A DNA stretch of 64,000 nt from Planctomycetota bacterium. GTDB lineage: Bacteria > Planctomycetota > Phycisphaerae > Phycisphaerales > SM1A02. Shown here one piece after another: positions 1,425 through 16,468 of the stretch. Each line of letters begins with the position of its first letter. Positions within the stretch are counted from its first letter, which is position 1. Both the position numbers and the translations under genes were made by a program. The stretch lies in the NCBI GenBank assembly GCA_024226535.1, contig JAAELP010000193.1, positions 2,706 through 66,705 on the forward strand, given 5' to 3'. The notes beneath the pieces were generated by a model. That model made no database searches. It saw only the letters and a list, made by a program, of their open reading frames with translations, and was not told where the DNA came from.

Positions 1425-4400
1425 TCAGGGACACGCCCCCCAGGCGCCGATGATGACGAGAATATCCGCAAAGTCCACCGCGCCGTTGCCGTTGAGGTCC
1501 TCCGGGCAGCCCGGGCACGGTCCCCACGCCCCGATGACGGCGAGGATGTCGCCGAAGCCGACGTCGCCGCTGCCGTCGATGTCGCCCACGCACTCGCACT
1601 CATCGGCGATCCCGTTGCCGTTGACGTCGGTGAGGATGCCCTCGTCGATGTCGCAGTCGTCGGGCACGCCGTTGTCGTTGCAGTCGAGGGGGAAGGTCCC
1701 GTCGAAGCCGGCGGCGCGGACCATGGCGTCCCATCCCGGGTTCTGGATGGGGGTGACGGCACCGCCGGACGTCAGGTCGTTGGGGTCGATGAAGCCGAAG
1801 CCGTCGAAGAGGAACATCTCGCCGTCCGGCTCGCTCGTGTCCACCGCGGCGGGGGCCGTGTTGAACATGTCGTCGAAGATCACGCCGACGAAGAACGACG
1901 TGCCCGCGGGGCCGACGAACGTCGGGACGATCGGCTCGACGTTGAAGATGTTCGTGTTCACGTTCTGCGTCACCGTGTCGACGGACGCGAGCACCTGCGC
2001 GTCGGGGATGTCACCGTCGCCGTTCGGATCGCTCCAGACGTACAGGGTGGCGGGCTGATTCGTGACCGTGTTGCCCCAGGCGATCTCGATGGCGCTGATC
2101 CACTCGCTGCCCGGCTGCACGGTGAAGTGGTTGAGCCAGCCCATGACCACGGGGGAGACGAAGCCGATGTTCTGGTCCTTCGTCCCGTCGTCCCACAGGT
2201 ACGTCTGCGACAGCTCCGGGTCGCCGAGCTGGCACTCGTCGGGGATTCCGTCCGGCTGGCAGTCGTCGCTGGTGCCGAGCAGGATGTCGAGGCCGTCGAG
2301 GATGCCGTTGTTATTGCAGTCCTCGCACTCGTCGGGAATGCCCGACCCGTCCGTGTCCGCGCTCGTGCCGGAGGCGATGTCGCACCCGTCGGGCACGCCG
2401 TTGCCGTTGCAGTCGCCGAGCGTTTCGAGCTGGCAGTCGTCGGGGGCGAGGTCTCCGTTGCAGTCGTTGTTGACGAGCTGGCATTCGTCGGGGACGCCGT
2501 CGCCCTGGCAGTCGAGGCTCGTGCCGCCGGCGATGTCCAGGCCGTCCGGGGTCCCGTTGCCGTTGCAGTCCTCACACTCGTCCGGCACGCCGTTCCCGTC
2601 GACGTCTTCACTCGTGCCGGCGTCGATGTCGCAGAGATCGGGAATCCCGTTCAAGTTGCAGTCGCCCTGCGTGCCGAGCATGCGCGCCCGGATCAGCCAG
2701 TGACCCGGGAACAGGATGTCGTCGATCGTCCCGAACTCGGCCGCGCTGGCAAGGTCGTTGGGGTCGATCGGACTTCCGTCGCCGACGATCCAGCTCTGCC
2801 CGAAGTTGCTCCCCTGCGTGTCCATGGCGGCGGGGAAGTCGTTGGCGGTCACGGGCATCATGAAGCCCACGAAGAAGCGCGTGTTGGCCGGCCCGAGGTC
2901 CAGGTCGGTGACGTCGATCGTGAGGAAGACGTCCAGCTCCTGGACCACGTACTGGCCGGACCACAGGGCCTGGGCGTCCGTCGGGTCGCCGTCGCCGTTC
3001 GGGTCGCTCCACACGTGCACGTCCACCGTCGTTCCGAGGGGCATGAACACGAACATGACGTCGATCGCGTCGATGATCGACACGCCGGGCTCGACCGCGA
3101 ACATGTTGAGCCACGCCATGAAGGGGCCGCCGTTCGTGCGCACGCCGAACTCGGCCCCTCCGTCGTCGTATGACAGCACGACGTCCTCCCCCACCTGGCA
3201 TTCGTCGGGGATGCCGTCCGGCTGGCAGTCGTCGCTGGTCGCGGCGGCGACGTCGCACGAATCCACGACCCCGTTGCCGTTGCAGTCCTCGTCGGCGAGC
3301 TGGCACGCGTCGGGGACCCCGTCCCCGTCGCAGTCGTTGTCGACGAGCTGGCACTCGTCGGGAATGCCGTCGCCCTGGCAGTCGGGGCTGGTGCCGCCGG
3401 CGATGTCGCAGCCGTCGGGCGTACCGTTCTCGTTGCAGTCGGGATCGCACTCGTCGGGGATGCCGTTGGCGTCGCAGTCTTCGCTGAAGCCGGTGGCGAC
3501 GTCGCACTCGTCCGGCTCCCCGTTGCCGTTGCAGTCGGCCATGACGGGGCTTCTGAGCAGACGCAGGACGCGGAGCGCGCCGGCCGTGATGCGCAGCTCG
3601 TCGATCGCCCCCTTCAGGTGCTGGTTGACGTTGCCGGCGGCGTTCGTGTGCGCGCCCACGATCAGCGGGCCGGTGTTCGCGAAGAATCCCGGCGGGACGA
3701 CCGCGATCGTCTCGAACATGCCGTCGCGACCGAACCGCACCTCGCCGGTGTCCGCGTCGTAGGTCACGCTGACGGCGTGCCAGTCGAGATCCGAGATCTC
3801 CAGGTTCGAGGTCACCCCCCACGTCTGCGTGCCCGTGCCGAAGGTGACGAGCAGCTCGCGCCCGGTGAACCCGGACGTCTTGCCGAAGTTCTGGTCGAGA
3901 CCCGAGGAGAGGTTGCCCGACTGCACGAGCACCGAGTAGTCCGAGACGTCGCCGCTGGACGCGATCACCTTCTTCTGGAGCAGGTACTGACGCTGGCCCG
4001 TGCCGCTCGTGTCCGAGAGCTGGTCGAGCCGGACCCACGCCTCGATCGTGAAGCTCTCGCCGGCAAGCGTCAGGAGCCCTCCGGGATCCGTCACCTCGAT
4101 GAGACCGTCCGTGAACTCGATGGCGAACGTGTTGGGCTCGCCGGTCTGGGGAACGGGATCGACGGGCACGTCGGTGGTCGGGGCGACGGCCGCCGCTATG
4201 CCGTCGAGACCGTTGGGGCCGGAGTCGACGATGACGCCGCCGAGGTCCTCGAAGCGCCAGTATCCGACCGGGACCGGCGGCACGATGTCGCACTCGTCGG
4301 GCACGCAGTTCCCGTCGCAGTCGGTGCTCGTGCCGGCGAGGATGTCGCCGACGTCGGGGATGCCGTTGCCGTTGCAGTCCTCGCCGCAGACGTCGGGGTA

Positions 4401-5057
4401 GCCGTCGTCGTCGGTGTCGGCGAGGGGGCTGAGCGCGCTCATGGGCACGACCTCGCGTGGGAGCCCCGGCGCCTCCCACTCCAGCCGGGCCTCGGCCCCA
4501 CCGCCGGCTTCGAAGTAGTCCATCTGGAACAGGTATCGCTCGCCGCCGACGAGAGCGATCGCGCCCGACCATTCGGTCGGCGACTGATCGTGCCACTCGT
4601 CGATGAGCAACGCCTCGTCGATCCAGAGCCGCACCCCGTCGTCGGTGGTGGTGTAGAAGGTGTACGTGCCCGAGACGGGCGCCGTGATCGCGCCGGTCCA
4701 GCGCACCGTGAACTCGTCGTCCGGCAGGGCGGCGTCCGGCGATCCGTTGCCCCAGTTGAAATCGATGACGTCGTCGAACCGCACGAGCACACGTTCGCTG
4801 AAGCTGCCCGCGCCGGACTCGCTCACGTAGTACTGGCCGGTCAGACCGCCCGGGGCCAGCGCCTCGCAGGCGTCGAGGATGCCGCTGTCGTCGCAGTCGG
4901 CGCAGGGCTGGCACTCGTCGGGCACCGCGTCGCCATCGCAGTCCATCGACGTGCCGGTGGCGATGTCGATGGCATCGTCGATGCCGTTGCCGTTGCAGTC
5001 GATGATGCCGGTGCCCGTCACGATCGCGAGGACGAGGACAGGCAACACGGTCAGCAC
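1425..5057 (-). CDS. giant secreted modular protein: PA14 + LamG/ConA-like + about 20 Cys-bracketed Ca-type repeats + two copies of an unassigned ~170-aa domain + C-terminal double dockerin-like module
   Basis: In-frame part of track ORF 1425..5222. PA14-like segment GLTGQYY..FTVRWTG..YTFYTTTDDGVRLWID..YFEAGGGAEARLEW (~4467-4847). LamG-like segment YWRFED..FTIEAWVRLD..LDWHAVSVTYD..GAIDELRI (~3585-4265). Tail GDIDGSGDVGFGDILAVIGAWGPCPGCPEDLNGNGAVDFADILVIIGAWGACP. Start placed at GTG 5057 (VLTVLPVLVLAIVTG hydrophobic leader) because the 55 upstream codons are Arg-rich and overlap the paralog's 3' end. The start is uncertain. Confidence 0.85.
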   Translation of the reverse strand: MLTVLPVLVLAIVTGTGIIDCNGNGIDDAIDIATGTSMDCDGDAVPDECQPCADCDDSGILDACEALAPGGLTGQYYVSESGAGSFSERVLVRFDDVIDFNWGNGSPDAALPDDEFTVRWTGAITAPVSGTYTFYTTTDDGVRLWIDEALLIDEWHDQSPTEWSGAIALVGGERYLFQMDYFEAGGGAEARLEWEAPGLPREVVPMSALSPLADTDDDGYPDVCGEDCNGNGIPDVGDILAGTSTDCDGNCVPDECDIVPPVPVGYWRFEDLGGVIVDSGPNGLDGIAAAVAPTTDVPVDPVPQTGEPNTFAIEFTDGLIEVTDPGGLLTLAGESFTIEAWVRLDQLSDTSGTGQRQYLLQKKVIASSGDVSDYSVLVQSGNLSSGLDQNFGKTSGFTGRELLVTFGTGTQTWGVTSNLEISDLDWHAVSVTYDADTGEVRFGRDGMFETIAVVPPGFFANTGPLIVGAHTNAAGNVNQHLKGAIDELRITAGALRVLRLLRSPVMADCNGNGEPDECDVATGFSEDCDANGIPDECDPDCNENGTPDGCDIAGGTSPDCQGDGIPDECQLVDNDCDGDGVPDACQLADEDCNGNGVVDSCDVAAATSDDCQPDGIPDECQVGEDVVLSYDDGGAEFGVRTNGGPFMAWLNMFAVEPGVSIIDAIDVMFVFMPLGTTVDVHVWSDPNGDGDPTDAQALWSGQYVVQELDVFLTIDVTDLDLGPANTRFFVGFMMPVTANDFPAAMDTQGSNFGQSWIVGDGSPIDPNDLASAAEFGTIDDILFPGHWLIRARMLGTQGDCNLNGIPDLCDIDAGTSEDVDGNGVPDECEDCNGNGTPDGLDIAGGTSLDCQGDGVPDECQLVNNDCNGDLAPDDCQLETLGDCNGNGVPDGCDIASGTSADTDGSGIPDECEDCNNNGILDGLDILLGTSDDCQPDGIPDECQLGDPELSQTYLWDDGTKDQNIGFVSPVVMGWLNHFTVQPGSEWISAIEIAWGNTVTNQPATLYVWSDPNGDGDIPDAQVLASVDTVTQNVNTNIFNVEPIVPTFVGPAGTSFFVGVIFDDMFNTAPAAVDTSEPDGEMFLFDGFGFIDPNDLTSGGAVTPIQNPGWDAMVRAAGFDGTFPLDCNDNGVPDDCDIDEGILTDVNGNGIADECECVGDIDGSGDVGFGDILAVIGAWGPCPGCPEDLNGNGAVDFADILVIIGAWGACP

Positions 5058-7843
5058 GCTCCCCAACTGGCGATGATGATGAGAATGTCCGCGAAGTCCA
5101 CCGACCCGTTGTCGTTGAGATCCTCCGGACACGAGCCGCACGGCCCCCAGGCGCCGATGACGGCGAGGATGTCGCCGAAGCCGACGTCGCCGCTGCCGTC
5201 GAGGTCGGCCGGGCACTCGCACTCGTCGGGAATGCCGTTGACGTTCGCGTCGTGCTCGAGCACGCCGTCGGAACCGACCGCATGCACCAGGAAGTCGCTA
5301 TTGCCCCAGTTCAGGCTGACCCCCGCCCCGAGGTCATTCAGATCGAGCGAGCCGGAGGTGTCGTAGAAGATCCATCCCAGCCCGTCCGTCGGCTCGTCGC
5401 GATCCAGCGCAATGAAGCAAGCGCTGCCGTAGATGTCGTCGAAGTGCACGCCGACGAAGAACGCTGTTCCCACCGGCCCGACATAGGTCGGCGGAATCGG
5501 CACCACGTTGAGATTATCGAGGGGAGAGTCGATCTTCATCGTTCGCGTGTCGACCGTGATGATGACCTGGGCATCGGTGGGATCCCCGTCCCCGTTGGGG
5601 TCGGTCCACAGGACGACTTCGGCCGGCAGATCCGGAAAGGTGTCGCCCCACACGACCTCGATGGCGGAGATCCACTCGCCGCCCGCCTGGACGGTGAATG
5701 GGTTCATCCACGCAAACTCGAGGTCTGTTCCTCCGATGAAACAGAGATTCCCTTCCTGGACGCCGTCGTCGAGCGCGTAGGTCATGGACGTGACCGGCTC
5801 GCCGAGCTGACATTCATCCGGAACACCGTCGCCGTCGCAGTCGTCGCTCGAGCCCAGGAGGAGGTCCAGCGAGTCGACCAGGCCGTTGCCGTTGCAATCC
5901 TCGCATTCGTCCGGCACGCCCGAGCCGTCCGTGTCCACGTCGTAACCGGATGCGATGTCGCACGCGTCGAGGATCCCGTTGTCGTTGCAGTCATTGCCCT
6001 CGAGCTGGCAGTCATCGGGGACGCCGTCACCATCGCAGTCGTTGGCCGTCACCTGGCACTCGTCGGGGACGCCGTCGGCCTGGCAATCCGCGCTCGTCCC
6101 GCCGGCGATGTCGAAACCGTCGACGATGCCGTTGTCGTTGCAGTCCTCGCATTCGTCCGGGACGCCGTTGCCGTCGAGATCCTCGCTGGTCCCGACCTCG
6201 ATGTCGCAGTCATCAGGATTGCCGTTGCCGTTGCAGTCGGTTCCGTCACCACGCATCTGGGCGCGGATTATGAAGACGTTGCCGAACAACAGGTTGTTGA
6301 CCGTGCCGAACTCAACCGCCCCGGCGGAGAGATCGTTCGGGTCGATGGGAGCGTTGGACCCGACGCCCCAACTCCGGTCGGGCACGGGGACCCCCTCGAT
6401 GTCCAGCGCGGCGGGGAAGTCCTGGTCCGTCATCGACACCGTAAAGCCGACGAAGAAGCTCGCGCCGGTATCACCCACCTCGACGTCGGGAACGGCGATC
6501 TGGCTCAGTGAGCTGGTCTGCTGCACGGTCGCCGAATCCGACCACAGAACCTGGGCGTCGGTCGGATCACCGTCTCCGTTCGGGTCGGTCCACACGTACA
6601 CGCCGACCTGCGTCCCCAGGGACATGATGCCGAACTCCACCTCGATCCCCTCCACGGTTCCGGCCCCGTCGACGACGTTGAAGCGGTTGAGCCACGCCAT
6701 GTACGTCTCGTCCGCACGCCAGGCGATCCGCGCAAAGCCGCTGTCGTGGAAGAGACCGATCGCCTCGTCGAGCTGGCACTCGTCGGGGATGCCGTCCGGC
6801 TGACAGTCGTCGGACGTTGCGCCCGCGATGTCACATGCGTCGGCGATCCCGTTGCCGTTGCAGTCGGGGTCGCACTGGTCCGGGATCCCGTTGCCATCGC
6901 AATCGTTCCCCACGAGTTCGCACTCATCGGGCGCACCGTTGCCGTCGCAGTCGGCGCTCGTACCGTCGGCGACGTCGCACCCATCCGGCACGCCGTTGCC
7001 GTTGCAATCTGCCATCTCGTAGCTTGCCAGCAGCTGCCCGTCCGGCATGAAGTCGTCCACGATCCGAAGCTCGTCGATCGCCCCCTTCAGGTGCTGGTTG
7101 ACGCTGCCGGAGACGTTCGTGTGCGCGCCGATGATCAGCGGGCCCACGTTCGCGAAGAACCCCGGCGGGGATACCGGGATCGTCTCGAACATGCCGTCGC
7201 GACCGAAACGCACCTCCCCAGCCACGGCGTCGTAGGCCACGCTGACGGCGTGCCAGTCGAGATCCGAGATCTGGAGGTTCGACGTGACCCCCCACGTCTG
7301 CGTGCCCGTGCCGAAGGTGACGAGCAGCTCGCGCCCGGTGAACCCGGATGTCTTGCCGAAGTTCTCGTCGAGTCCCGACGAGAGGTTGCCCGACTGCACG
7401 AGCACCGAGTAGTCCGAGACGTCGCCGCTGGACGCGATCACCTTCTTCTGGAGCAGGTACTGGCGCTGCCCGGCGCCGCTCGTGTCCGAGAGCTGGTCGA
7501 GCCGGACCCACGCCTCGATGGTGAAGCTCTCGCCGGCGAACGTGAGCAGCCCCCCGGGATCCGCGACCTCGATGAGCCCGTCCGTGAAGTCGACGGCGAA
7601 CGCGTTGGGCTCGCTGGTCTTCGGGACGGGATCGACGGGGACGTCGGTGATCGGGGCGATGCTCACCGCCAGTCCGTCGAGGCCGTTGGGGCCGGAGTCG
7701 ACGATGACGCCGCCGAGGTCCTCGAATCGCCAGTAGGCGAGCGGCTCGATGACCGCGAGGTCGATGGCGTCGTCGATGCCGTTGCCGTTGCAGTCCGCGG
7801 GAACAGCCATCGCGAGAGCGAGCAGCGTGTACGGGAGGATCAT
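5051..7843 (-). CDS. giant secreted paralog: LamG/ConA-like + Cys-bracketed Ca-type repeats + two copies of the unassigned domain + double dockerin-like tail (no PA14)
   Basis: Track ORF, 930 aa. Short leader MILPYTLLALAMAVPA. LamG segment (~7058-7738) is nearly identical to that of 1425..5057. Tail DLDGSGDVGFGDILAVIGAWGPCGSCPEDLNDNGSVDFADILIIIASWGAC. Confidence 0.85.
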   Translation of the reverse strand: MILPYTLLALAMAVPADCNGNGIDDAIDLAVIEPLAYWRFEDLGGVIVDSGPNGLDGLAVSIAPITDVPVDPVPKTSEPNAFAVDFTDGLIEVADPGGLLTFAGESFTIEAWVRLDQLSDTSGAGQRQYLLQKKVIASSGDVSDYSVLVQSGNLSSGLDENFGKTSGFTGRELLVTFGTGTQTWGVTSNLQISDLDWHAVSVAYDAVAGEVRFGRDGMFETIPVSPPGFFANVGPLIIGAHTNVSGSVNQHLKGAIDELRIVDDFMPDGQLLASYEMADCNGNGVPDGCDVADGTSADCDGNGAPDECELVGNDCDGNGIPDQCDPDCNGNGIADACDIAGATSDDCQPDGIPDECQLDEAIGLFHDSGFARIAWRADETYMAWLNRFNVVDGAGTVEGIEVEFGIMSLGTQVGVYVWTDPNGDGDPTDAQVLWSDSATVQQTSSLSQIAVPDVEVGDTGASFFVGFTVSMTDQDFPAALDIEGVPVPDRSWGVGSNAPIDPNDLSAGAVEFGTVNNLLFGNVFIIRAQMRGDGTDCNGNGNPDDCDIEVGTSEDLDGNGVPDECEDCNDNGIVDGFDIAGGTSADCQADGVPDECQVTANDCDGDGVPDDCQLEGNDCNDNGILDACDIASGYDVDTDGSGVPDECEDCNGNGLVDSLDLLLGSSDDCDGDGVPDECQLGEPVTSMTYALDDGVQEGNLCFIGGTDLEFAWMNPFTVQAGGEWISAIEVVWGDTFPDLPAEVVLWTDPNGDGDPTDAQVIITVDTRTMKIDSPLDNLNVVPIPPTYVGPVGTAFFVGVHFDDIYGSACFIALDRDEPTDGLGWIFYDTSGSLDLNDLGAGVSLNWGNSDFLVHAVGSDGVLEHDANVNGIPDECECPADLDGSGDVGFGDILAVIGAWGPCGSCPEDLNDNGSVDFADILIIIASWGAC

Positions 7844-7928
7844 CGGAGCCTCATCTCTCTCCCCCCCGAGATGCGCGCAGGAACAGCGCTAGTCGAACAC
7901 ATCGAATTCTGACGATCGTCGGCCTCGA

Positions 7929-8324
7929 CTACGACGGGCACGGGCCCCACGCGCCGATCACGACCAGGATGTCGGCGAAGTCCACCTGGCCGTTGTTGTT
8001 GAGATCCTCGGGGCATCCGGCACACGGTCCCCACGCGCCGATGATCACGAGGATGTCGGCGAAATCGACGTCACCGTTGCCGTTCAGGTCCGGCGGGCAG
8101 GTGGCCGAGGTGCCGATGCCGGCGTGGACGGGTCTGAACCGGTAGTCGTCGTTGACGGGGAGCTGGGTGTCGGCGGAGCGGGCCGAGTGAAGGTCGCCCG
8201 TCTGGGCGTCCTTGGCGATACCAAAGCCCGCCGGCGCGAGTACGAGTGTGAGCACCGTCAGGAGCGTGGCCACCGCCGCACCCAGACCGACGAACTGCTT
8301 CTCACGGATCGACTTGGGGTCCAT
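7929..8324 (-). CDS. small membrane-anchored/secreted protein consisting essentially of a double dockerin-like module
   Basis: Track ORF, 131 aa. Hydrophobic N-terminal span GLGAAVATLLTVLTLVLAPAG, then DLNGNGDVDFADILVIIGAWGPCAGCPEDLNNNGQVDFADILVVIGAWGPCPS. Confidence 0.7.
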   Translation of the reverse strand: MDPKSIREKQFVGLGAAVATLLTVLTLVLAPAGFGIAKDAQTGDLHSARSADTQLPVNDDYRFRPVHAGIGTSATCPPDLNGNGDVDFADILVIIGAWGPCAGCPEDLNNNGQVDFADILVVIGAWGPCPS

Positions 8325-8487
8325 CGCACTTCCTCCTACCAGACGATGTCGAGTCTAACGGCCGACGCCGCCGGCCGCAACGGGTTTTCAAAAACTTCCC
8401 CGGAATCCCCGGTCCGGCCCCGTCAACCGTCTGGATACCCCTCTCAGACACGATTTTGGAGATCGGGCCCGTGGCCGTATCCTGCCC

Positions 8488-9396
8488 TTGATGACTGCCG
8501 GGACCGAGCACGAGGCCGGAACGCAGGGCCCACCCCCCGCCCGGGTGCCCCCCGCTTCCGCTTCTTGGCGACGACCCCGGCCCCGCTGGAGCAGCCGGCT
8601 CTCGGCCCCCCTCCGCTGCCTGCCGGATTTTCTCGTCATCGGGGCCCAGCGGTCGGGGACGACCTTCCTGTTCCAGGAGCTCTCGCGCCACCCCGCCGTG
8701 TGGATGCCGCCGTGCAAGGAGTGCCACCACTTCACGGCGCGGATGCGGTCCAGCCTGTGGTATCGGGCGTTCTTCCTCACGCGGGCCGCCCGGCGCCGCC
8801 GGGAGCGGGCGTGCGGCCGGCCGGTGCTCGTGGGCGAGGGGACGCCGTACTACCTCGTTCACCCGGCCGTACCGGCGCGGGTGGCCCGGCTGCTTCCGGC
8901 GGCGCGGCTCGTGGTGCTGCTGCGCGACCCCGTCGAGCGCGCGTACTCCCACTACCGGCACGAGATCCGGTACGGCCGCGAGCACCTGAGCTTCGAGGAA
9001 GCGCTCGATGCCGAGCCGCGGCGCATCGCCGGCGAACGCGAGCGTCTCGCGCGATCGCGCTTCGCGGCGAGCCCGGCGTACCAGCAGCACTCCTACGTGG
9101 AGCGCGGGCGGTACGCCGAGCAGCTCGAACGGTGGTTCGCCCACTTCGACCGATCGCAGGTGCTCGTCGTCTTCTCCGAGCATCTCTACGCCGATCCCGC
9201 ATCGACGACGGCGCGCGTCGAGGAGTTCCTCGGCCTGCCGCCGGGACCGGAGCAGGCGGCGACCATCCCGAACCCGGGGCTCGAGCTGGGCCCGATGGCG
9301 GACGAGACGCGCCGCCGGTTGCGCGCCGAGTTCGCCGAGTCCGACCGCGCGCTGGAACGGCTGCTCGGCGTGGGGGTGCCGTGGCCGCGGAGCTGA
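8488..9396 (+). CDS. sulfotransferase (Sulfotransfer_1-like; resembles heparan-sulfate N-/3-O-sulfotransferase type)
   Basis: PAPS 5'-phosphosulfate loop FLVIGAQRSGTTFLFQELSRHP and 3'-phosphate motif LLRDPVERAYSHYRH. Confidence 0.85.
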   Translation: MMTAGTEHEAGTQGPPPARVPPASASWRRPRPRWSSRLSAPLRCLPDFLVIGAQRSGTTFLFQELSRHPAVWMPPCKECHHFTARMRSSLWYRAFFLTRAARRRRERACGRPVLVGEGTPYYLVHPAVPARVARLLPAARLVVLLRDPVERAYSHYRHEIRYGREHLSFEEALDAEPRRIAGERERLARSRFAASPAYQQHSYVERGRYAEQLERWFAHFDRSQVLVVFSEHLYADPASTTARVEEFLGLPPGPEQAATIPNPGLELGPMADETRRRLRAEFAESDRALERLLGVGVPWPRS

Positions 9397-9412
9397 TCGT
9401 CCGGGTCGTTGC

Positions 9413-9907
9413 TCAGGGGCACGGCCCCCATGCCGCGATGACCACGAGGATGTCCGCGAAGTCGACGGCGCCGTTGCCGTTGAGATCCTCGGGGCATCCT
9501 CCGCACGGTCCCCACGCCCCGATGTGCTGCCGCTGGCCGGCGCCGCTCGTGTCGCTCACGTGATCGAGCCTGACCCACGCCTCGATCGTGAAGCTCGCGT
9601 CGCCGAAGCTCAGAAGACCCGTCGGATCGACGACGTTGAAGCGGCCGCCCGACGCGGTGCTCTGCCAGTTCAGGTCGAGCGACTGCGTGTTCAGCGCGCC
9701 GGTGCCGGGCACGGGATCGACCGGGATCTCCGCGATCCGGAACGGCAGCGCGTTGAGCGTGCCGTCGAGACCGTTGGGCCCGCTGTCGACGACCGTCGTC
9801 CCGCCCGCGCCCTCGAAGCGCCAGTACGCCGTCTCGACGGCGTTCGCCGCGGTGGTGAGACCGCCGAGAACGATCGCGCCCGTCCCGATGACTGTCCAGA
9901 TACGCAT
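9413..9907 (-). CDS. mini family member: signal peptide + N-terminal half of the LamG domain fused directly to one dockerin-like repeat
   Basis: Track ORF, 164 aa. AYWRFEGAGG..FTIEAWVRLDHVSDTSGAGQRQ is followed immediately by HIGAWGPCGGCPEDLNGNGAVDFADILVVIAAWGPCP. Confidence 0.7.
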   Translation of the reverse strand: MRIWTVIGTGAIVLGGLTTAANAVETAYWRFEGAGGTTVVDSGPNGLDGTLNALPFRIAEIPVDPVPGTGALNTQSLDLNWQSTASGGRFNVVDPTGLLSFGDASFTIEAWVRLDHVSDTSGAGQRQHIGAWGPCGGCPEDLNGNGAVDFADILVVIAAWGPCP

Positions 9908-9935
9908 GCTGTTTCCCTCCTACCGCCAAGGCAGT

Positions 9936-10145
9936 TCAGCAGTCTCCCCACAACGACAGCAGCACGCCGATGTCGCTGATCCCGACGACGCCGTCGCCGT
10001 CGAGCTCCACCTGGATCACGTCGCCCCCAACGGCGACGTCGACGGCTCCCTGGACGGACGGAAAGTGATCCGGCACGATGATGGTCCCGGCCGTCGCGAC
10101 GTCGCAGACCGCGAGCAAGGCGAGTGATGAGATCATCCGTCTCAC
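9936..10145 (-). CDS. small secreted protein with a single degenerate dockerin-like C-terminus
   Basis: Track ORF, 69 aa. Leader MRRMISSLALLAVCDVATA; ends DGDGVVGISDIGVLLSLWGDC. Its GTG start overlaps the upstream GT2 stop by 4 nt (10142-10145), suggesting coupled translation. Confidence 0.5.
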   Translation of the reverse strand: MRRMISSLALLAVCDVATAGTIIVPDHFPSVQGAVDVAVGGDVIQVELDGDGVVGISDIGVLLSLWGDC

Positions 10146-11149
10146 GATTCACCTCCTGACACCTGGTGGGGCTCCTCCGCGCGCTTCCGAAGCAGGTACG
10201 CGAGCACGCCGTGCGTCATGCCGACGCCGCGCCAGACGGCGCGCACGGCGCTCATGCCGGCGAAGAGCACATGGCTCAGGCGCCCCGTGCGGCGCACGAT
10301 GGCGGTCGTCATGGGGATCTGCGTGACGAGCAGCAGGCCGAGGAGCACCACCGGCGTCCACCGCGCATACGGCACCACCGCCAGCGGCAGCGACGCGAGC
10401 AGGGCCATCGCGAGCATCGGCTGCACGTGATCGAGGGCGTTGCTGTACGAGTTGTGCCCCGCCCGACCCGGGTGCTCCAGGTGCAGCCAGACGCGCCAGT
10501 AGCCCTGTTGCCGCTGGGTCCTCAGGTACGAGCCGAGCCGCTGCTCGTGATAATGATCGACCCGGGAGCGCGCCTCGAAACGAAGACGGCCGCCGGCATC
10601 GCGGGCCCGGAACGACAACTCGGCGTCCTGGGCCTTCAGGTAGCGCTCGTCGAAGCCGTCGAGGTCCGCGAGCACCGAGCGCCGGTACAGCACGTTGAAC
10701 GTCGCGAGGAAGTCAACCTCCTCGCCCATGGCCAGGTGCCGCTGGACGATCTCCTCGTGGATGAGGCACGGGAGCAGGCTGTCCGCGTTCGCGTTGCCGT
10801 ACGTCCCGCTCACGGCGGCCACGTCCGGCGCCTCCAGGTGCCCGACGAGGTGCTCCAGGGCGTCGGGCGCCGCGACGCAGTCGGAGTCGACGAACCAGAC
10901 GAGGTCCCCGCGCGCCGCCCGCCAGCCGAGGTTCCGGGCGGAGCCCGCGCCGGACCCGGTTCCCGCGAGCACCGTCACCGGATGACGGCCCGCGATCGCC
11001 GCCGTGTCGTCGGTGGAGCCGTCGTCGACGAAGATGATCTCCTCCAGGGGCGATCCCGGCCGCGCGCCGATCGCGACGATCGCCGCGAGGCACGCCTCGA
11101 TCGTCGCGGCGCAGTTCCGTCCCGGGATGACGGCGCTCACCGTGCTCAT
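10142..11149 (-). CDS. family 2 glycosyltransferase with C-terminal membrane helices
   Basis: VIPGRNCAATIEACLAAI..IIFVDDGSTDDT..SARNLGW..WFVDSDC, followed by hydrophobic C-terminal spans. ATGA overlap with the upstream gene at 11146-11149. Confidence 0.85.
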   Translation of the reverse strand: MSTVSAVIPGRNCAATIEACLAAIVAIGARPGSPLEEIIFVDDGSTDDTAAIAGRHPVTVLAGTGSGAGSARNLGWRAARGDLVWFVDSDCVAAPDALEHLVGHLEAPDVAAVSGTYGNANADSLLPCLIHEEIVQRHLAMGEEVDFLATFNVLYRRSVLADLDGFDERYLKAQDAELSFRARDAGGRLRFEARSRVDHYHEQRLGSYLRTQRQQGYWRVWLHLEHPGRAGHNSYSNALDHVQPMLAMALLASLPLAVVPYARWTPVVLLGLLLVTQIPMTTAIVRRTGRLSHVLFAGMSAVRAVWRGVGMTHGVLAYLLRKRAEEPHQVSGGES

Positions 11150-13014
11150 TCCCGGACCTCCCTTCGGGCTTCCGACTCCTCGAGCCAGCGGCGTGCGCCG
11201 TCGTGCCCCGGGTCCGCGTCGAGCGCGCCGCGGTACGCGGCGGCGGCGGCGTCCATCCGGCCGAGCCGGAAGTGCGTGTTGCCGACGTTGTAGAGCGCCG
11301 ACGCGAGCAGGGCCTCGTCACGCGCGGCGCGGGCGAGCCGCGCGCCCTCCTCGAACGCCGGGATCGCCTCGTCGAAACGCTCCGCCTCCGTGAGGGCGTT
11401 GCCCAGCGCCAGGTAGGCCCCGGCGCTCGGCGCACGCTCGATAGCGCGCCGGTACGTCTCCACCGCGTCCTCCGGGCGCCCCGCCCGCCGGAGCGTGTCC
11501 GCCAGTTGGAGCAGCGCATCGGGACGCCGCAACTGCGGGGCGGCGACCTCCAGGTAGCGAAGCGCCTCGCCGAACCGGCCGGCCTCCGCGAGCGCGGATC
11601 CGTAGTTGAGCTCCGCGAGCGCGTCCCCCGGGCGCTCGGCCACGACCGCGCCGAGCACGTCGATCGCCTCGTCGATTCGCCCCGCCTCGTGCAGGGCGAC
11701 GCCGAGATTGACACGAGGCCGGCGGTGATGCGGCACCTGCTCGGCCGTCTTCGTCCAGAGCGCCAGCGGCGTGCGATAGTCGTGGTTGCGCACGATCGAG
11801 CGGGCCCCGAGGGCCGTCGTGGCCGCGACGAGGACCACCGCCCCGACGACCGCCGCCCGCGAGGGCCCGACCAGCCGCGGGGCCAACCACGTGAAGCCGG
11901 CGACCGCGAGCACCGCGAGCGCCGCCAGCGGCAGGTACATCCGGTGCTCGGCCGCGAGATCACGGATGGGCACGAAGCTCGAGGTCGGCGCGAGCCAGAT
12001 GAAGAACGCGGCTCCCGCGAAGGCGATCGGCCGACGGCGCCACGCGCCGACCACGGTCACCACGGCGGCGGCGGTGAGCAGCGCGCCGGGGATCACGACT
12101 TCGCGCGCCGTCGTCGCCGCCGGCCAGCCGGGGTCGATGCACAGCGAGCGGGGCCACGCCGCCAGCGCGACGTAGTGCACGATCACCCCCGCCTGCGTGA
12201 CGAAGTACTCCAGCGGCGTGACCTGCGCCACCCCGAAGCCCGCCGAGGGCGTTCCCGCGTCACCGGGCGCCCCGAAGATCGCCGCGAGCGTTCCGGTCGG
12301 AACCAGCACGAGCCACGTGCACGCGAGCGCCGCGTGGAGCGCGCCGCGCCGCCGCAGCGCCGCGCGCCACGACGACGAGACGACGATCCCGTCGAAGACC
12401 AGGGCGAGCACCGGCGCCACGACCATCGTCGGCTTGGCCCCCATGCCCAGCGCGCACGCGACGATCGCGACGGCCCACCACCGGGCCCCGCGCTCCGCGC
12501 GACCGGCGCGCAGCACCGCGTACAGCACGACGAACATGGCCAGCGCGGCCAGCACCTCCGACCGCTGGATCACGTAGGTCACCGACTCCGTCTGGAGCGG
12601 GTGCACGACCCACAGCAGCGCGGCGGCGAAGCCGATCGTGGTCGCGCCGCGCCGGCGGGCGACCACCCGGCGGACGAGGCCGAACAGCACGCAGGCGGCC
12701 GCGACGTGCAGGAGCACGTTCACCGCGTGGTAGCCGCGCGGGTCCAATCCCCCGAGTGCGTGGTTCGCCACGAGCGTCGCGGTCGTCACCGGGCGCCGAT
12801 CGCCGCGGAACAACTTTCGCAGGTCGCCCGACAGCTCGCCGGAGCGCTCGACGATCTGCGGCACGTCGTCGAAGACGAATGCCGCCGGAATCGCGTTGGC
12901 GTACACCGCCAGGCCGGCGACGACGATCACGACGTGCAGGATGAGGATCGATCGCCAGTCCCCGCGCCGGGGATCGCGGCCATCCCCCGGCATTGCCGGA
13001 GGCGCCTCGGTCAT
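11146..13014 (-). CDS. TMTC-like GT-C fold glycosyltransferase: multi-pass membrane domain + C-terminal TPR repeats
   Basis: YANAIPAAFVFDDVPQIV..RPVTTATLVANHALGGLDPRGYHAVNVLLH matches the FVFDD / RP..L / GYH..N..LH signature of TMTC (DUF1736) proteins. At least 9 hydrophobic spans. TPR-like C-terminus (NLGVALHEAGRIDEAIDVL.., YLALGNALTEAERFDEAIPAF.., LYNVGNTHFRLGRMDAAAAAYRGAL). Start moved to ATG 13014, which forms an ATGA overlap with the stop of 13011..14273. Track ORF extends to 13128. Confidence 0.8.
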   Translation of the reverse strand: MTEAPPAMPGDGRDPRRGDWRSILILHVVIVVAGLAVYANAIPAAFVFDDVPQIVERSGELSGDLRKLFRGDRRPVTTATLVANHALGGLDPRGYHAVNVLLHVAAACVLFGLVRRVVARRRGATTIGFAAALLWVVHPLQTESVTYVIQRSEVLAALAMFVVLYAVLRAGRAERGARWWAVAIVACALGMGAKPTMVVAPVLALVFDGIVVSSSWRAALRRRGALHAALACTWLVLVPTGTLAAIFGAPGDAGTPSAGFGVAQVTPLEYFVTQAGVIVHYVALAAWPRSLCIDPGWPAATTAREVVIPGALLTAAAVVTVVGAWRRRPIAFAGAAFFIWLAPTSSFVPIRDLAAEHRMYLPLAALAVLAVAGFTWLAPRLVGPSRAAVVGAVVLVAATTALGARSIVRNHDYRTPLALWTKTAEQVPHHRRPRVNLGVALHEAGRIDEAIDVLGAVVAERPGDALAELNYGSALAEAGRFGEALRYLEVAAPQLRRPDALLQLADTLRRAGRPEDAVETYRRAIERAPSAGAYLALGNALTEAERFDEAIPAFEEGARLARAARDEALLASALYNVGNTHFRLGRMDAAAAAYRGALDADPGHDGARRWLEESEARREVRE

Positions 13015-14273
13015 GACGGGGCCTCGGGGAGCGGGTACTCGTACGTGATCGTCGACGGCACGTACGGGAAGTCCATCCGCAGCCGGTACACGTCCATCCG
13101 ATCGGCGTCCCAGCCCAGCGACCCGCACACGTGGCGGACCATCTTCTCGTAGCGCGGCACGTCGCGCGTGCGCAGCACGCTCGGGCCCGACCCGAGGTAC
13201 TCGACCTGCTCGTGGATCGGCAGCCGATCGCGGTCCGACCGCAGCGTCGTGTACAGCGGGCGCCCGGCGAGCTCACCGTAGAGACGCGCCTGGGGCGCGA
13301 CGCGACCGTAGAGGTCCGCGGGCACCAGGTGGTCGAAGACCACGGTTCGACACGGCGTTCGTAGCTCGAGGTTCTGCGCGAGGATCCGGTTCGATTCGGC
13401 GCGATACCTCGGCATGACGGAACGCACGACCTCGCCGGTGAAGCACGTCACGGCGCCCTCGTTCCCCAGCGGCCCCGAGCCGACCTCGTCCTCCACGGTG
13501 CCGTCCTCAAGGATGCGCCTCTGCACTTCGGTCCGCGAGGTCGAGGAGAAATCGTGGAGGAGCGGGGCGCAGCCCGCCTTCGTGTCGTCGATCGCCTCGC
13601 GCTCGACGGGAATGGGCCGGCCGAGGTCGTCGGTCGGCCGCCAGCGCTCGATGACCCAGGAGCGGTCCGGGCGCAGGCGTCGCAAGCCCACGGACCCGAA
13701 GATCACGGCGGCGTCGAGCATGACGCCGTCCTGATTGGGGTTCACGATCACGGCGCGCATCATCGCGCGGGCCTGCACGCCCCAGATGAAGCTCGTCGCC
13801 TGGAAGCCGTCACGGCGATACAGGAGTTCGACGTCCCGGCCGTTCTCGGCCGCGAGCCCGGCGAGGATCATCTCGAACGTCTCCCGGTCACCGGCGTGCC
13901 GGGCGACGATCTCGTCGAGATTCGCCAGGGCCGTTCGGACCGCGGCCAGCCGCTCGGTCGAGACCCCGTGCCGCTTCGCGGCGGACAGGATCTTCTCGAC
14001 GGCGCCGGCACCCGGGATGCGCTGGAAGATCACGACCGGGTCGGTGCTCTCCATGATCTTGGCGAGCTTCCACGCGAGCGTCTTGTGGAGGCCGAGCGAC
14101 TTGGCGATCTCGTACGGCCGCTCGGTGGGCTCGGGCACGGTGCCGACCGCGTCCACGAACGCGTCCTGCACCCGCAGGAGGGCGTTGTGCGCCAAGGCCC
14201 CGACGCCCGCGTCGGCCGGGGTCGCGGGTCGGGATGGAATCGTCGAAGCCACGTCCCTCAACCCTATCCACAA
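13011..14273 (-). CDS. hypothetical protein, family not recognised (possible N-terminal HTH-like segment)
   Basis: Track ORF, 420 aa, with balanced, protein-like composition and no low complexity. ERPYEIAKSLGLHKTLAWKLAKIM looks helix-turn-helix-like. TTG start at 14273; alternative GTG at 14252. Confidence 0.65.
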   Translation of the reverse strand: MWIGLRDVASTIPSRPATPADAGVGALAHNALLRVQDAFVDAVGTVPEPTERPYEIAKSLGLHKTLAWKLAKIMESTDPVVIFQRIPGAGAVEKILSAAKRHGVSTERLAAVRTALANLDEIVARHAGDRETFEMILAGLAAENGRDVELLYRRDGFQATSFIWGVQARAMMRAVIVNPNQDGVMLDAAVIFGSVGLRRLRPDRSWVIERWRPTDDLGRPIPVEREAIDDTKAGCAPLLHDFSSTSRTEVQRRILEDGTVEDEVGSGPLGNEGAVTCFTGEVVRSVMPRYRAESNRILAQNLELRTPCRTVVFDHLVPADLYGRVAPQARLYGELAGRPLYTTLRSDRDRLPIHEQVEYLGSGPSVLRTRDVPRYEKMVRHVCGSLGWDADRMDVYRLRMDFPYVPSTITYEYPLPEAPS

Positions 14274-14354
14274 TCAGCCGCACCGAGAAGTAGGTAATCT
14301 GGGTTTTTGGAACCGCCCCCAAAAACGGTCTTGCCCAGTTCGACACCGGCCCGC

Positions 14355-15596
14355 TCACAGCCCGGGGAGGGCACCGGAACCCCCCGCCAGGCCCTCGTAG
14401 CGGGCCACCAGGACGTCGGCCAGCCTCTCCGTGTCGAACCGCTCGAGCGCCGCCGCCCGGCCCGCCGATCCGAGCCGGCCGGCGAGGTCGGCATCCTCGA
14501 GCCGGGCGATCCGCTCGGCCATCGCCTCGACGTCGTGCTCGTCGACCAGCCAGCCGGTGACGCCCTCGTCGACCTGGTGGGGAATGCCCGCGTGCCGGGT
14601 GGCCACGACCGGAAGCCCCGACGCCATCGCCTCCAGGATCACGGTGGGCGTGCCCTCCTCGTCGCCGTCCGACGCGCGGACGCTCGGGGCGATCAGCGCG
14701 TGCGCGCCGGCCATGAGCGCCGGCACGTCCTCGTGCCCGACGGCGCCGGCGAAGTGCACGGCATCGGCGATCCCCAGTTCGTCGGCGAGAGCGCGGAGTT
14801 CGCGGTCGAGCGGACCGTCGCCCGCGATGTGATAGGCGACGGGCAGCCCGCGGGCGCGGGCGAGGGCCACCGCGCGCAGCCCGTCGGCGAAGCCCTTCTT
14901 CTCGACGAGACGCCCCACCGACAGCAGTCTCAACGGTGGGCGCGGCGGCGCGTGCCCGGTGGGCGTGAAGCGCCGGCAGTCGACGGCGAGCGGGTGGACG
15001 TCGAGCTGCTCCGGCTTCGCCCCGAGCGCCTCGAGGCGGTCGCGCATCACCGGGTCGAGCGCCAGCACGAGCGCCGCGCGGTCGAACAGCCTGCGGTAGA
15101 CGTCGCCGCCGCGCTCCTGCGGGTACCGCGTCACGTCGTGCCCGTAGAACGTGGCCACGAGCGGTCCGCGCAGCACGCCCAACTCGTGCAGCATCGCCCC
15201 CGTGACCCCCGCCGGTCCGAAGTGACAGTGCACCGCGTCGAAGCGAGGTCGATCGAGCAGCGGCACCGCGGCGTGGAGAGCGGCGAAGGACAGCGCGTAC
15301 CGGCCGAACCGCAGCGGGTTCAGGGCCCGGCCGACGATCCGCGGGTGACACCAGGCGTGCCGAGCGGCGAGGGCCAGGCCGCTCAGGGTGCGGGGGAGCC
15401 GCGCCGTGGCGAGCGGCGGCTGCGGGCGCCAGTGCGACGCGAGACGCTCGCGGGCGGCGTCATCGACGGCCCCGGCCGGCGTCGGCGGGGCGAAGATGGC
15501 CAGCTCGTGCCCGCGCTCGAGCAGCCCCTCAAGCTGGCCGAGGACGTACGGCTGGTGGCGGCGGGGGAAGTCAGGGACGAGAATCGCGATCTTCAT
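14355..15596 (-). CDS. GT-B fold glycosyltransferase (GT4 family, WcaL-like)
   Basis: MKIAILVPDFPRRHQPYVLGQLEGLLERGHE at the N-terminus. C-terminal EEGTPTVILEAMASGLPVVATRHAGIPHQVDEGVTGWLVDE (E-x7-E region). Start moved to ATG 15596; track ORF begins at 15641. Confidence 0.85.
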   Translation of the reverse strand: MKIAILVPDFPRRHQPYVLGQLEGLLERGHELAIFAPPTPAGAVDDAARERLASHWRPQPPLATARLPRTLSGLALAARHAWCHPRIVGRALNPLRFGRYALSFAALHAAVPLLDRPRFDAVHCHFGPAGVTGAMLHELGVLRGPLVATFYGHDVTRYPQERGGDVYRRLFDRAALVLALDPVMRDRLEALGAKPEQLDVHPLAVDCRRFTPTGHAPPRPPLRLLSVGRLVEKKGFADGLRAVALARARGLPVAYHIAGDGPLDRELRALADELGIADAVHFAGAVGHEDVPALMAGAHALIAPSVRASDGDEEGTPTVILEAMASGLPVVATRHAGIPHQVDEGVTGWLVDEHDVEAMAERIARLEDADLAGRLGSAGRAAALERFDTERLADVLVARYEGLAGGSGALPGL

Positions 15597-15655
15597 CGGC
15601 CACGCCGCCCCGTCGATGACACCCGGAAGACACCACGCCACGCAGTGCCGGCCCC

Positions 15656-16468
15656 ATGACCCCCCCCATGACCCCCCCGATCATCATCACCGGAATGCAC
15701 CGCTCGGGCACATCGCTGCTGGCGAGCATGTTCTACCACGCGGGGCTCCATCTCGGTGACCGGCTGCTGCGCCCGGCTCGCGCCAATCCGCGAGGCTACT
15801 TCGAGGACGTGGAGTTCATCGCGTTCCACGACGACGTGCTGCGGCGTCTGGGAACGACGTTCTACCTGGAGCCCGAGCCGAACGGCCCGGTGCCGGCGCC
15901 CTGCCGCGAGCGCGCCGAGGAGATGATCGCCGCGCGGGACGACCGCCCGGCGTGGGGATGGAAGGACCCGCGCACCACGCTGTTCCTGGACTTCTGGCGC
16001 GAGCTGGTCCCGGACGCTCGTTTCGTCTTCGCGTACCGGAGCCCCGCGGAGGTCATCGATTCGCTTCGGCGCCGCGGAGACGCCGAGCTCCAGCGCCGAT
16101 ACCCGGGCGCGCCGTTCCTCGAGCGTTTCGGCGTCCCGCGGTACCGCACGCGTCGCGCGCTGGAGCTCTGGTGCTCGTACAACGAGCGCATCGTCTCGTT
16201 CGTCGAGCGGGATCGCGCGCGATGCCGCCTCGTGCGCTTCGACGCCCTCGCCGAGGTCGTCGGCCCCCTCGTCGACGAGCTCTGCGACGACGGAGTGCCC
16301 CTGCGCCGCGATGCCGACGTCGCGTCCGTCGTCGATCCGAAGCTGGGCGCCGTCGCGCCGCCGCCGGCACTGGCGCGGACCTGCGCCCGCGACCGCCGCG
16401 CGGCGGATCTCATGCGGCGGCTCGACGCCCTCATGGCGTCGACCGCGCCGGGGGGAGGCTCGGCATGA
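15656..16468 (+). CDS. sulfotransferase (Sulfotransfer_3-like)
   Basis: PAPS loop IIITGMHRSGTSLLASMF. Later FVFAYRSPAEVIDSL is a 3'-PB-like motif. Duplicated ATG-A-polyC start (see findings). Confidence 0.8.
   Translation: MTPPMTPPIIITGMHRSGTSLLASMFYHAGLHLGDRLLRPARANPRGYFEDVEFIAFHDDVLRRLGTTFYLEPEPNGPVPAPCRERAEEMIAARDDRPAWGWKDPRTTLFLDFWRELVPDARFVFAYRSPAEVIDSLRRRGDAELQRRYPGAPFLERFGVPRYRTRRALELWCSYNERIVSFVERDRARCRLVRFDALAEVVGPLVDELCDDGVPLRRDADVASVVDPKLGAVAPPPALARTCARDRRAADLMRRLDALMASTAPGGGSA

Follow-up and report, generated by a model that had tools for sequence, protein, structure and literature searches.

The window analysed here is a 64,000-nucleotide stretch of contig JAAELP010000193.1 (G+C about 70%) from a draft genome of a planctomycete of the order Phycisphaerales. 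Near its start lie five open reading frames (ORFs), P0001 to P0005, with a dockerin-like tail at the C-terminus, and this tail is the subject of the present analysis. A first-pass annotation of the same DNA had described five tandem minus-strand genes with the C-termini ..GAWGACP*, ..ASWGAC*, ..GAWGPCPS*, ..AAWGPCP* and ..SLWGDC*. The translations gave exactly these ends, and all five genes are on the minus strand and carry the tail, but a plus-strand sulfotransferase gene interrupts the row. One or two copies of the tail had been reported for each gene. Two full repeats are present in P0001, P0002 and P0003, and one full repeat plus a fragment in P0004, whereas P0005 has only a degenerate copy and is a marginal member of the tail family. 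The genes and the modules within them are listed below, with scores from the Pfam model Dockerin_1, the NCBIfam model NF041540 and a hidden Markov model (HMM) of the repeat unit.

1425..5057, minus strand: P0001, with PA14, LamG, Cys-rich repeats, two copies of a domain of about 180 amino acids and the dockerin tail (from the translation)
1428..1604, minus strand: two-repeat four-Cys dockerin module of P0001 (residues 1207-1265 of the long frame; Dockerin_1 28.0 bits, NF041540 15.9 bits)
5051..7843, minus strand: P0002, with LamG, the same Cys-rich repeats and ~180-amino-acid domains as P0001 and the dockerin tail (from the translation)
5054..5227, minus strand: two-repeat four-Cys dockerin module of P0002 (Dockerin_1 22.4 bits, NF041540 17.3 bits, unit HMM 55.5 and 51.0 bits)
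7929..8324, minus strand: P0003, a mini protein of 131 amino acids with an N-terminal hydrophobic segment, a linker of about 35 amino acids and the dockerin module (from the translation)
7932..8108, minus strand: two-repeat four-Cys dockerin module of P0003, the copy used for folding (Dockerin_1 29.9 bits, NF041540 21.9 bits)
8488..9396, plus strand: sulfotransferase gene between P0003 and P0004 (Pfam)
9413..9907, minus strand: P0004, with a signal-peptide-like N-terminus, the first ~100 amino acids of LamG, the end of repeat 1 and the full repeat 2
9416..9526, minus strand: shortened module of P0004, in which Cys 2, 3 and 4 are kept and Cys 1 and the first calcium loop are missing (one HMM unit, 61.7 bits)
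9936..10145, minus strand: P0005, an ORF of 69 amino acids with a hydrophobic N-terminus and one degenerate repeat (from the translation)
9939..10007, minus strand: degenerate single repeat of P0005, E-L-D-G-D-G-V-V-G-I-S-D...W-G-D-C (unit HMM 14.5 bits)

The two copies at the ends of P0001 to P0003 follow the consensus C-P-x-D-L-[ND]-G-[NS]-G-x-V-[DG]-F-[AG]-D-I-L-x-[VI]-I-[GA]-A-W-G-x-C. The first annotation had taken this for the F-hand pattern of dockerins and had proposed a comparison with PF00404 and with EF-hand models. The gathering cut-off of Dockerin_1 (PF00404), 22.9 bits, was exceeded by the tails of P0003 and P0001; P0002 was just under it, and P0004 reached 17.1 bits. The only NCBIfam match to the window tails was NF041540, which remained below its cut-off of 29 bits in every case (13.4 bits for P0004). 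P0005 gave no Pfam or NCBIfam match. The canonical EF-hand (PF00036, PF13499) was rejected with scores of 10-19 bits against cut-offs of 25-30, and the structural model had no helix before either loop.

This model was calculated with AlphaFold2 for the P0003 tail from an alignment with 42 other tails of the window and genome (40 of them genome paralogues). It reached a mean predicted local distance difference test score (pLDDT) of 94.6 and consisted of two loop-helix units and four short bridge segments (13-14, 27-28, 41-42 and 55-56). In a Foldseek search the first 14 matches in the PDB, which were all those with a probability above 0.1, were dockerins. The best match was 2y3n_B, with a template modelling score of 0.82, a root-mean-square deviation of 1.6 A over 56 columns and a probability of 1.00, followed by 2ozn_B and 3kcp_A. 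The small size of the domain kept the E-values weak (5.9e-3 at best). The calcium ligands were conserved among 259 ungapped modules of the genome: position 1 of the loop was Asp in 100%, position 3 was D/N/S in 96-97%, position 5 D/S/N in 98-99% and position 12 Asp in 97-100%, while position 9 was D/N/G. The window tails conform to this pattern. Because of the Dockerin_1 scores, the PDB matches of the model and the conserved ligands, the tail is a true dockerin fold with intact F-hands. It represents a four-Cys variant of the GC-type dockerin of NCBI, and this variant is typical of the Phycisphaerales-like family to which the genome belongs.

The occurrence of the module in the source genome (a draft of 5.2 Mb in 526 contigs, 95% complete, with 6.5% contamination) was determined by a six-frame stop-to-stop ORF scan with the repeat HMM, a census that had been suggested along with the first annotation. 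The module was present in 298 ORFs. It lay within 12 residues of the stop codon in 273 of these, 248 of which had two repeats, and it was internal or otherwise atypical in about 25. Carriers ended 0-3 residues after the fold, with no hydrophobic or basic tail. A chance or low-complexity artefact was rejected, as the 298 ORFs were spread over many contigs and had a coding-like G+C content at third codon positions (GC3). Signal-peptide-like N-termini were found, by a crude heuristic, in 82% of the 5'-complete carriers and in 39% of 2,450 control ORFs (odds ratio 7), so the carriers are enriched for them. Pfam domains in 60 randomly chosen carriers included subtilase, M12B reprolysin-like, C25 and M28 peptidases, FG-GAP, beta-helix, haem peroxidase, MtrC-like and c7 cytochromes, glucose dehydrogenase, arylsulfotransferase, CBM96 and LamG. 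The carrier genes were clustered, with 70 adjacent pairs compared with 22.6 expected (no more than 38 in any of 2,000 permutations), and the longest runs comprised six genes. The HMM of PEP-CTERM, the tag that planctomycetes usually employ, gave one match in the whole genome, outside the tail genes of the window, compared with 273 C-terminal dockerin tails; the dockerin module appears to be the dominant C-terminal tag of this organism. Internal modules (e.g. C155:47592-48926, C313:12931-14910 and C490:14390-19801) often had a small motif with four Cys, G-A-C-C-x(2,4)-G-x-C-x(6,8)-C, directly behind them.

The four cysteines are referred to below as C1, three residues ahead of loop 1, C2, behind the W-G-x of repeat 1, C3, ahead of loop 2, and C4 at the end. 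The terminal Cys had been called invariant and foreign to dockerins. It is invariant within the window; in the genome it is absent from 58 of the 273 C-terminal modules, which end in ...N-W-S/T-G, and a Cys at this place is the hallmark of the existing curated model NF041540. A role as a special end signal is not supported either. The terminal Cys co-occurs with C1, as a structural disulfide would lead one to expect: when C4 was missing, C1 was usually missing too, and the three window ORFs with two full repeats all have both. With strict definitions, the 256 two-repeat modules showed the patterns CCCC (166), -CC- (47), C--C (15), -CCC (10), C-CC (5), CCC- (5) and others (8). The patterns CC-- and --CC, which correspond to loss per repeat, did not occur among them. 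With looser windows C1 was associated with C4 (Fisher p 2e-28) and C2 with C3 (Fisher p 1e-16). A sister genus has NF041540-type tails of the C--C pattern, and the internal copies of the module keep C4.

In dockerins the two helices are antiparallel, which puts the segment after helix 2 beside loop 1 and that after helix 1 beside loop 2, and the bridge segments of the model fit this arrangement. Because the occupancy of the cysteines follows CCCC, -CC- or C--C, two disulfides may be inferred from the sequences, an outer one between C1 and C4 and an inner one between C2 and C3 across a linker of 2-6 residues. The terminal Cys is on these grounds probably a structural staple and not a sorting signal. 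Genes for DsbA-like thioredoxins are present in the genome.

Taken together, the data favour, with a probability of about 55%, the reading that this duplicated two-F-hand module of about 58 residues is locked by disulfides and serves as a common attachment handle on exported proteins. After Sec export the module would fold around two Ca2+ ions. The outer disulfide would then tie its two ends together, and the inner one would close the linker between the repeats. As the module is nearly uniform, it could act as a common non-covalent handle for attachment or assembly, by which many enzymes and adhesin-like proteins would be held on a shared envelope receptor that in most members of the family would not be a recognisable cohesin. 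In the window, the mini protein P0003, with its putative anchor and the module, is encoded just upstream of the two giant PA14/LamG proteins P0002 and P0001; this gene order is conserved, and genes for glycan synthesis and sulfotransferases are adjacent.

Several points weigh against this reading. The attachment role is argued by analogy with cellulosomal dockerins and from the uniformity of the module because no receptor was found, and since the genome is a draft, a repetitive scaffold protein could be missing from the assembly. The N-termini of P0001 and P0002 are short and hydrophobic but lack a basic n-region, and both proteins failed the signal-peptide heuristic. The suggested disulfide pairing draws on co-occurrence rather than on distances in the model, and the paralogues behind the co-occurrence counts are not independent. 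A tree of 42 non-Cys columns had almost no supported branch, which left a phylogenetically controlled test without power; on the best, unsupported tree the partner Cys followed in about 80% of the pairings, and for the control pairs C1/C2 and C4/C3 the figure was about 10%. Finally, about 14 single-repeat tails keep both flanking cysteines (C-P-W-D-L-N...W-G-P-C-P; e.g. C77:20421-22889, C434:19800-20984 and C358:17138-18295), and these fit the two-disulfide scheme only by assuming dimerisation.

Among the alternatives, the module could have no protein partner at all and be an autonomous element for Ca2+-dependent folding or stability, or bind an acidic or sulfated envelope glycan through calcium. 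Many bacteria reportedly have dockerins without cohesins (Peer et al. 2009, as cited in PMC6461901), and the tail genes of the window adjoin glycosyltransferase and sulfotransferase genes. Gene neighbourhood by itself is weak evidence for glycan binding, and a stability element need not be so uniform over 270 unrelated cargo proteins or so consistently terminal. This explanation is considered unlikely.

A C-terminal sorting or secretion signal, recognised by a dedicated machine and cleaved or covalently processed near the terminal Cys as in the PEP-CTERM/exosortase, LPXTG/sortase and type IX C-terminal domain (CTD) systems, is rather improbable as well. The first-pass annotation had suggested that the module could be an anchoring or sorting tail rather than a true dockerin, a contrast that the dockerin fold does not support. 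The C-terminal position in 273 of the 298 carriers and the diversity of the exported cargo would agree with a sorting signal, as would the near absence of PEP-CTERM, which might leave its role to another tag, and the word 'anchored' in the NCBI name of the related model. Against it stand the fold, which is that of a protein-binding module, the end of the chain 0-3 residues behind it with no transmembrane helix or basic tail after the motif, and the approximately 25 internal copies, which are followed by other domains. The loss of C4 in 58 terminal copies, usually together with C1, also fits a structural pair and not a processing site. The known sorting signals PEP-CTERM, LPXTG and type IX CTD were rejected as candidates for the tail itself: they consist either of a signature motif with a hydrophobic helix and a basic end behind it or of a beta-sandwich CTD of ~80-100 amino acids, whereas the tail is alpha-helical and the protein stops 0-3 residues after it.

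Cohesins were also searched for. There was no cohesin HMM match in the window, in agreement with the first annotation, and no match to PF00963 above the cut-off in the source genome, which argues against a cohesin as the general partner. One ORF outside the window, P0209 (G000:C108:739-1395), came close with 21.9 bits against a cut-off of 24.1. Its 218 amino acids comprise a signal peptide, a cohesin-like domain of about 135 amino acids and a four-Cys tail of its own. The profile of its family matched the cohesin 6kg8_A at an E-value of 1.5e-5. The AlphaFold2 model was of moderate quality (pLDDT 71.8), and its top 50 PDB matches were all cohesins, with E-values down to 1e-9. Seven orthologues have the same architecture. 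P0209 is a real cohesin relative and the only cohesin-fold ORF of the genome; neither phmmer nor a cohesin-only HMM detected a paralogue among all genome ORFs.

With the cohesin-only profile a relative of P0209 was detected in 1 of the 30 relatives searched besides its own genome. In 17 of 18 sister genera the profile gave no match to the domain, and it gave none in the sister genus with NF041540 tails. Within the family, 19 genomes (the own genome and 18 sister genera) had a cohesin-fold ORF in 2 cases and the tail in 18. P0209 is single-copy and sporadic where the tail is widespread, and it is therefore unlikely to be the general receptor. A complex prediction for its cohesin-fold domain with a window tail and two calcium ions gave a score of 0.01, which speaks neither for nor against binding.

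A classical cohesin-dockerin system, in which the tails dock onto P0209 and P0209 chains or cross-links the carriers through its own tail, is for these reasons quite improbable. It would be favoured by the profile match to 6kg8_A, the cohesin matches of the model and the orthologues with the same architecture, and for another family of the Phycisphaerae a 'planctosome' of cohesins and dockerins, M12B peptidases included, has been put forward (PMC6461901). Yet one copy without a paralogue is set against about 270 dockerins. P0209 was found in only 1 of the 18 sister genera searched (17 of which have the tail), and the genus whose genomes each contain at least 150 NF041540 tails gave no match. 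No anchor to membrane or wall is obvious in P0209, and the quality of its model is moderate.

Homotypic dockerin-dockerin pairing, in which membrane-anchored, tail-only mini proteins of the P0003 kind would be anchors specific to their operon for the neighbouring large tail proteins, is no more probable than the cohesin system: the recurrence of the gene order P0003-P0002-P0001 in a related contig, the 27 tail ORFs of at most 200 amino acids in the genome and the single-repeat tails with both flanking cysteines, which would need a second F-hand from another chain, would suit it, but the N-terminal segment of P0003 could be no more than a signal peptide that is cleaved off, and we know of no precedent for such pairing as an anchoring mechanism.

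The preferred reading of an attachment handle can be carried further, to a cohesin-independent display system of one uncultured Phycisphaerales family in which several per cent of the proteome would be held on an envelope receptor, which could be tail-only membrane proteins like P0003, by dockerin-dockerin pairing, or a sulfated glycan. This extension is tentative, and is considered doubtful. Dockerins without cohesins are common in genomes, and the question of their role dates back to the first catalogues of them; a display system of this kind, if true, would give a new answer to what 'orphan' dockerins bind. One uniform module on about 270 exported proteins would amount to several per cent of the proteome, a footprint of the kind expected of a major cell-surface organising system. 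The co-occurrence of the cysteines yields a concrete structural prediction, two clamping disulfides, which would also explain the terminal Cys that had puzzled the first annotators.

The kind of module described here is already known and curated as NF041540, and what is new is the family-specific four-Cys variant. No paper on the GC-type dockerin family was found in a literature search. Both forms are C-terminal two-F-hand modules that end in Cys and have a matching Cys just before the first loop. They belong to the same order of Planctomycetota, where a genome contains tens to hundreds of copies on a variety of exported proteins. The window copies, in contrast, scored only 16-22 bits against the cut-off of 29, and they have four cysteines instead of two, the added inner pair flanking the linker. 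The helix reads F-[AG]-D-I-L-x-V-I-G-A-W-G-P-C in the window and I-F-D-F-L-A-F-Q-N-x-F-x-A-G-C in the sister genus, and the literal Gly-Cys dipeptide is replaced by G-x-C in the window tails. The cut-off of NF041540 was passed by five other ORFs of the source genome, and for annotation purposes the model misses nearly all copies of the four-Cys variant.

The cellulosomal type I dockerins (PF00404; 1OHZ_B, 2VN5_B, 2Y3N_B) share with the tail the duplicated 22-residue segment, the F-hand loops, the antiparallel helix pair, the location at the C-terminus of many different enzymes within one organism and the high uniformity of the paralogues. They differ in that no scaffoldin with cohesin repeats was found in the present genome, the cargo is not cellulolytic, putative Cys staples are present and the host is a Gram-negative-type planctomycete instead of a Firmicute. 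The 'planctosome' of Andrei et al. 2019 (PMC6461901) is a purely computational cohesin/dockerin hypothesis for the Nemodlikiaceae (Phycisphaerae), which depends on anchoring and adaptor proteins with cohesins. It resembles the present case in dockerin-bearing M12B-type peptidases and other non-cellulolytic proteins in the Phycisphaerae, in thrombospondin-type-3-like repeats in large proteins and in the combination of dockerin and cohesin in one protein, as in P0209. Here, by contrast, the sole cohesin-fold gene has a sporadic distribution in the relatives, and no scaffold for anchoring turned up. The PEP-CTERM/exosortase system, like other C-terminal sorting systems, has a short C-terminal tag common to many exported proteins of one genome, whereas the window tail is a folded calcium-binding domain without a transmembrane helix or a basic end.

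The distribution of the tail was determined with a tail profile. A search against 1.84 billion proteins gave 44,691 representative clusters at E <=1e-3 and 9,840 at 1e-10. The named relatives were from metagenome-assembled genomes labelled Phycisphaerales, Phycisphaerae or Planctomycetota, some from 'uncultured Isosphaeraceae' and two from Latescibacterota. Three public metagenome proteins (P0007, P0008 and P0010) had 8-17 matched tail stretches per chain; these multi-dockerin proteins are perhaps scaffolds. Among 201 sampled genomes of the phylum the tail was matched at E <=1e-8 in 7, in contrast to 17 of the 18 other genera of the same family, each with 2 to 147 matches (at most 150 matches were scored per genome). 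The suspicion that the tail is lineage-specific was thus borne out to the extent that it is largely lineage-restricted. NF041540 gave at least 150 matches over the cut-off in each of two complete genomes of the sister genus.

One member of the family with a complete genome of 3.8 Mb (G218) gave no match to the tail profile or to NF041540, and can serve as a natural negative control in a search for the receptor by comparative genomics. The sister genus with complete genomes and the two-Cys form offers a further comparison, and the cohesin-fold gene, which was not found in most tail-bearing relatives, helps to frame such a search.

The tail genes of the window are located inside a glycan-synthesis neighbourhood. 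Upstream of them (10142-16468) Pfam identified a glycosyltransferase family 2 (GT2) gene, a tetratricopeptide repeat (TPR) membrane protein, a GT4 gene and a second sulfotransferase. P0005 overlaps the upstream GT2 gene by 4 nucleotides, and the GT2, TPR and P0005 genes overlap by 4 nucleotides. GC3 was coding-like in all five tail frames (0.84-0.91; 0.90 for P0004 and 0.87 for P0005). The repeat of P0005 had an E-value of 0.086 across all genome ORFs with the repeat HMM built from the genome.

P0001 (Pfam PA14, 6e-26; Laminin_G_3, 1e-10) and P0002 (Laminin_G_3, 1.6e-9) are paralogues. The open frame of P0001 extends to 5222; the start is most likely the GTG at 5057. The 55 codons in between read through the P0002 tail in another frame and are rich in Arg. 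The resulting 7-nucleotide overlap of P0001 with P0002 was also called in the related contig L042, in which the orthologue of P0002 has 932 amino acids. P0003 was confirmed to consist of a hydrophobic N-terminal segment, the linker and the module, with nothing else. Its orthologue P0118, also of 131 amino acids and 78% identical, is encoded on a metagenome contig with the same gene order. P0004 is a deletion derivative of a third paralogue, because its N-terminal part, compared by eye, shares only about 60% identity with P0002. In its translation, compared with that of P0002, the last 7 residues of repeat 1 are joined in frame to the LamG portion. The P0004 module has an odd number of cysteines.

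Apart from the tails, P0001 (approximately residues 60-130, 560-680 and 860-1000) and P0002 (approximately residues 280-350 and 530-660) contain dozens of Cys-rich repeats of the form D-C-N-G-N-G-[IV]-P-D-x-C-[DQ]. No Pfam model matched these repeats, which resemble thrombospondin type 3 calcium-binding repeats. The domain of about 180 amino acids, W-L-N-x-F...V-W-[ST]-D-P-N-G-D-G-D-P-T-D-A-Q-V...F-F-V-G, gave no Pfam match and an uninformative best ESM Atlas score of 0.86 for the P0002 copy. It is duplicated in P0002 (approximately residues 350-535 and 690-870) and present in two copies in P0001.

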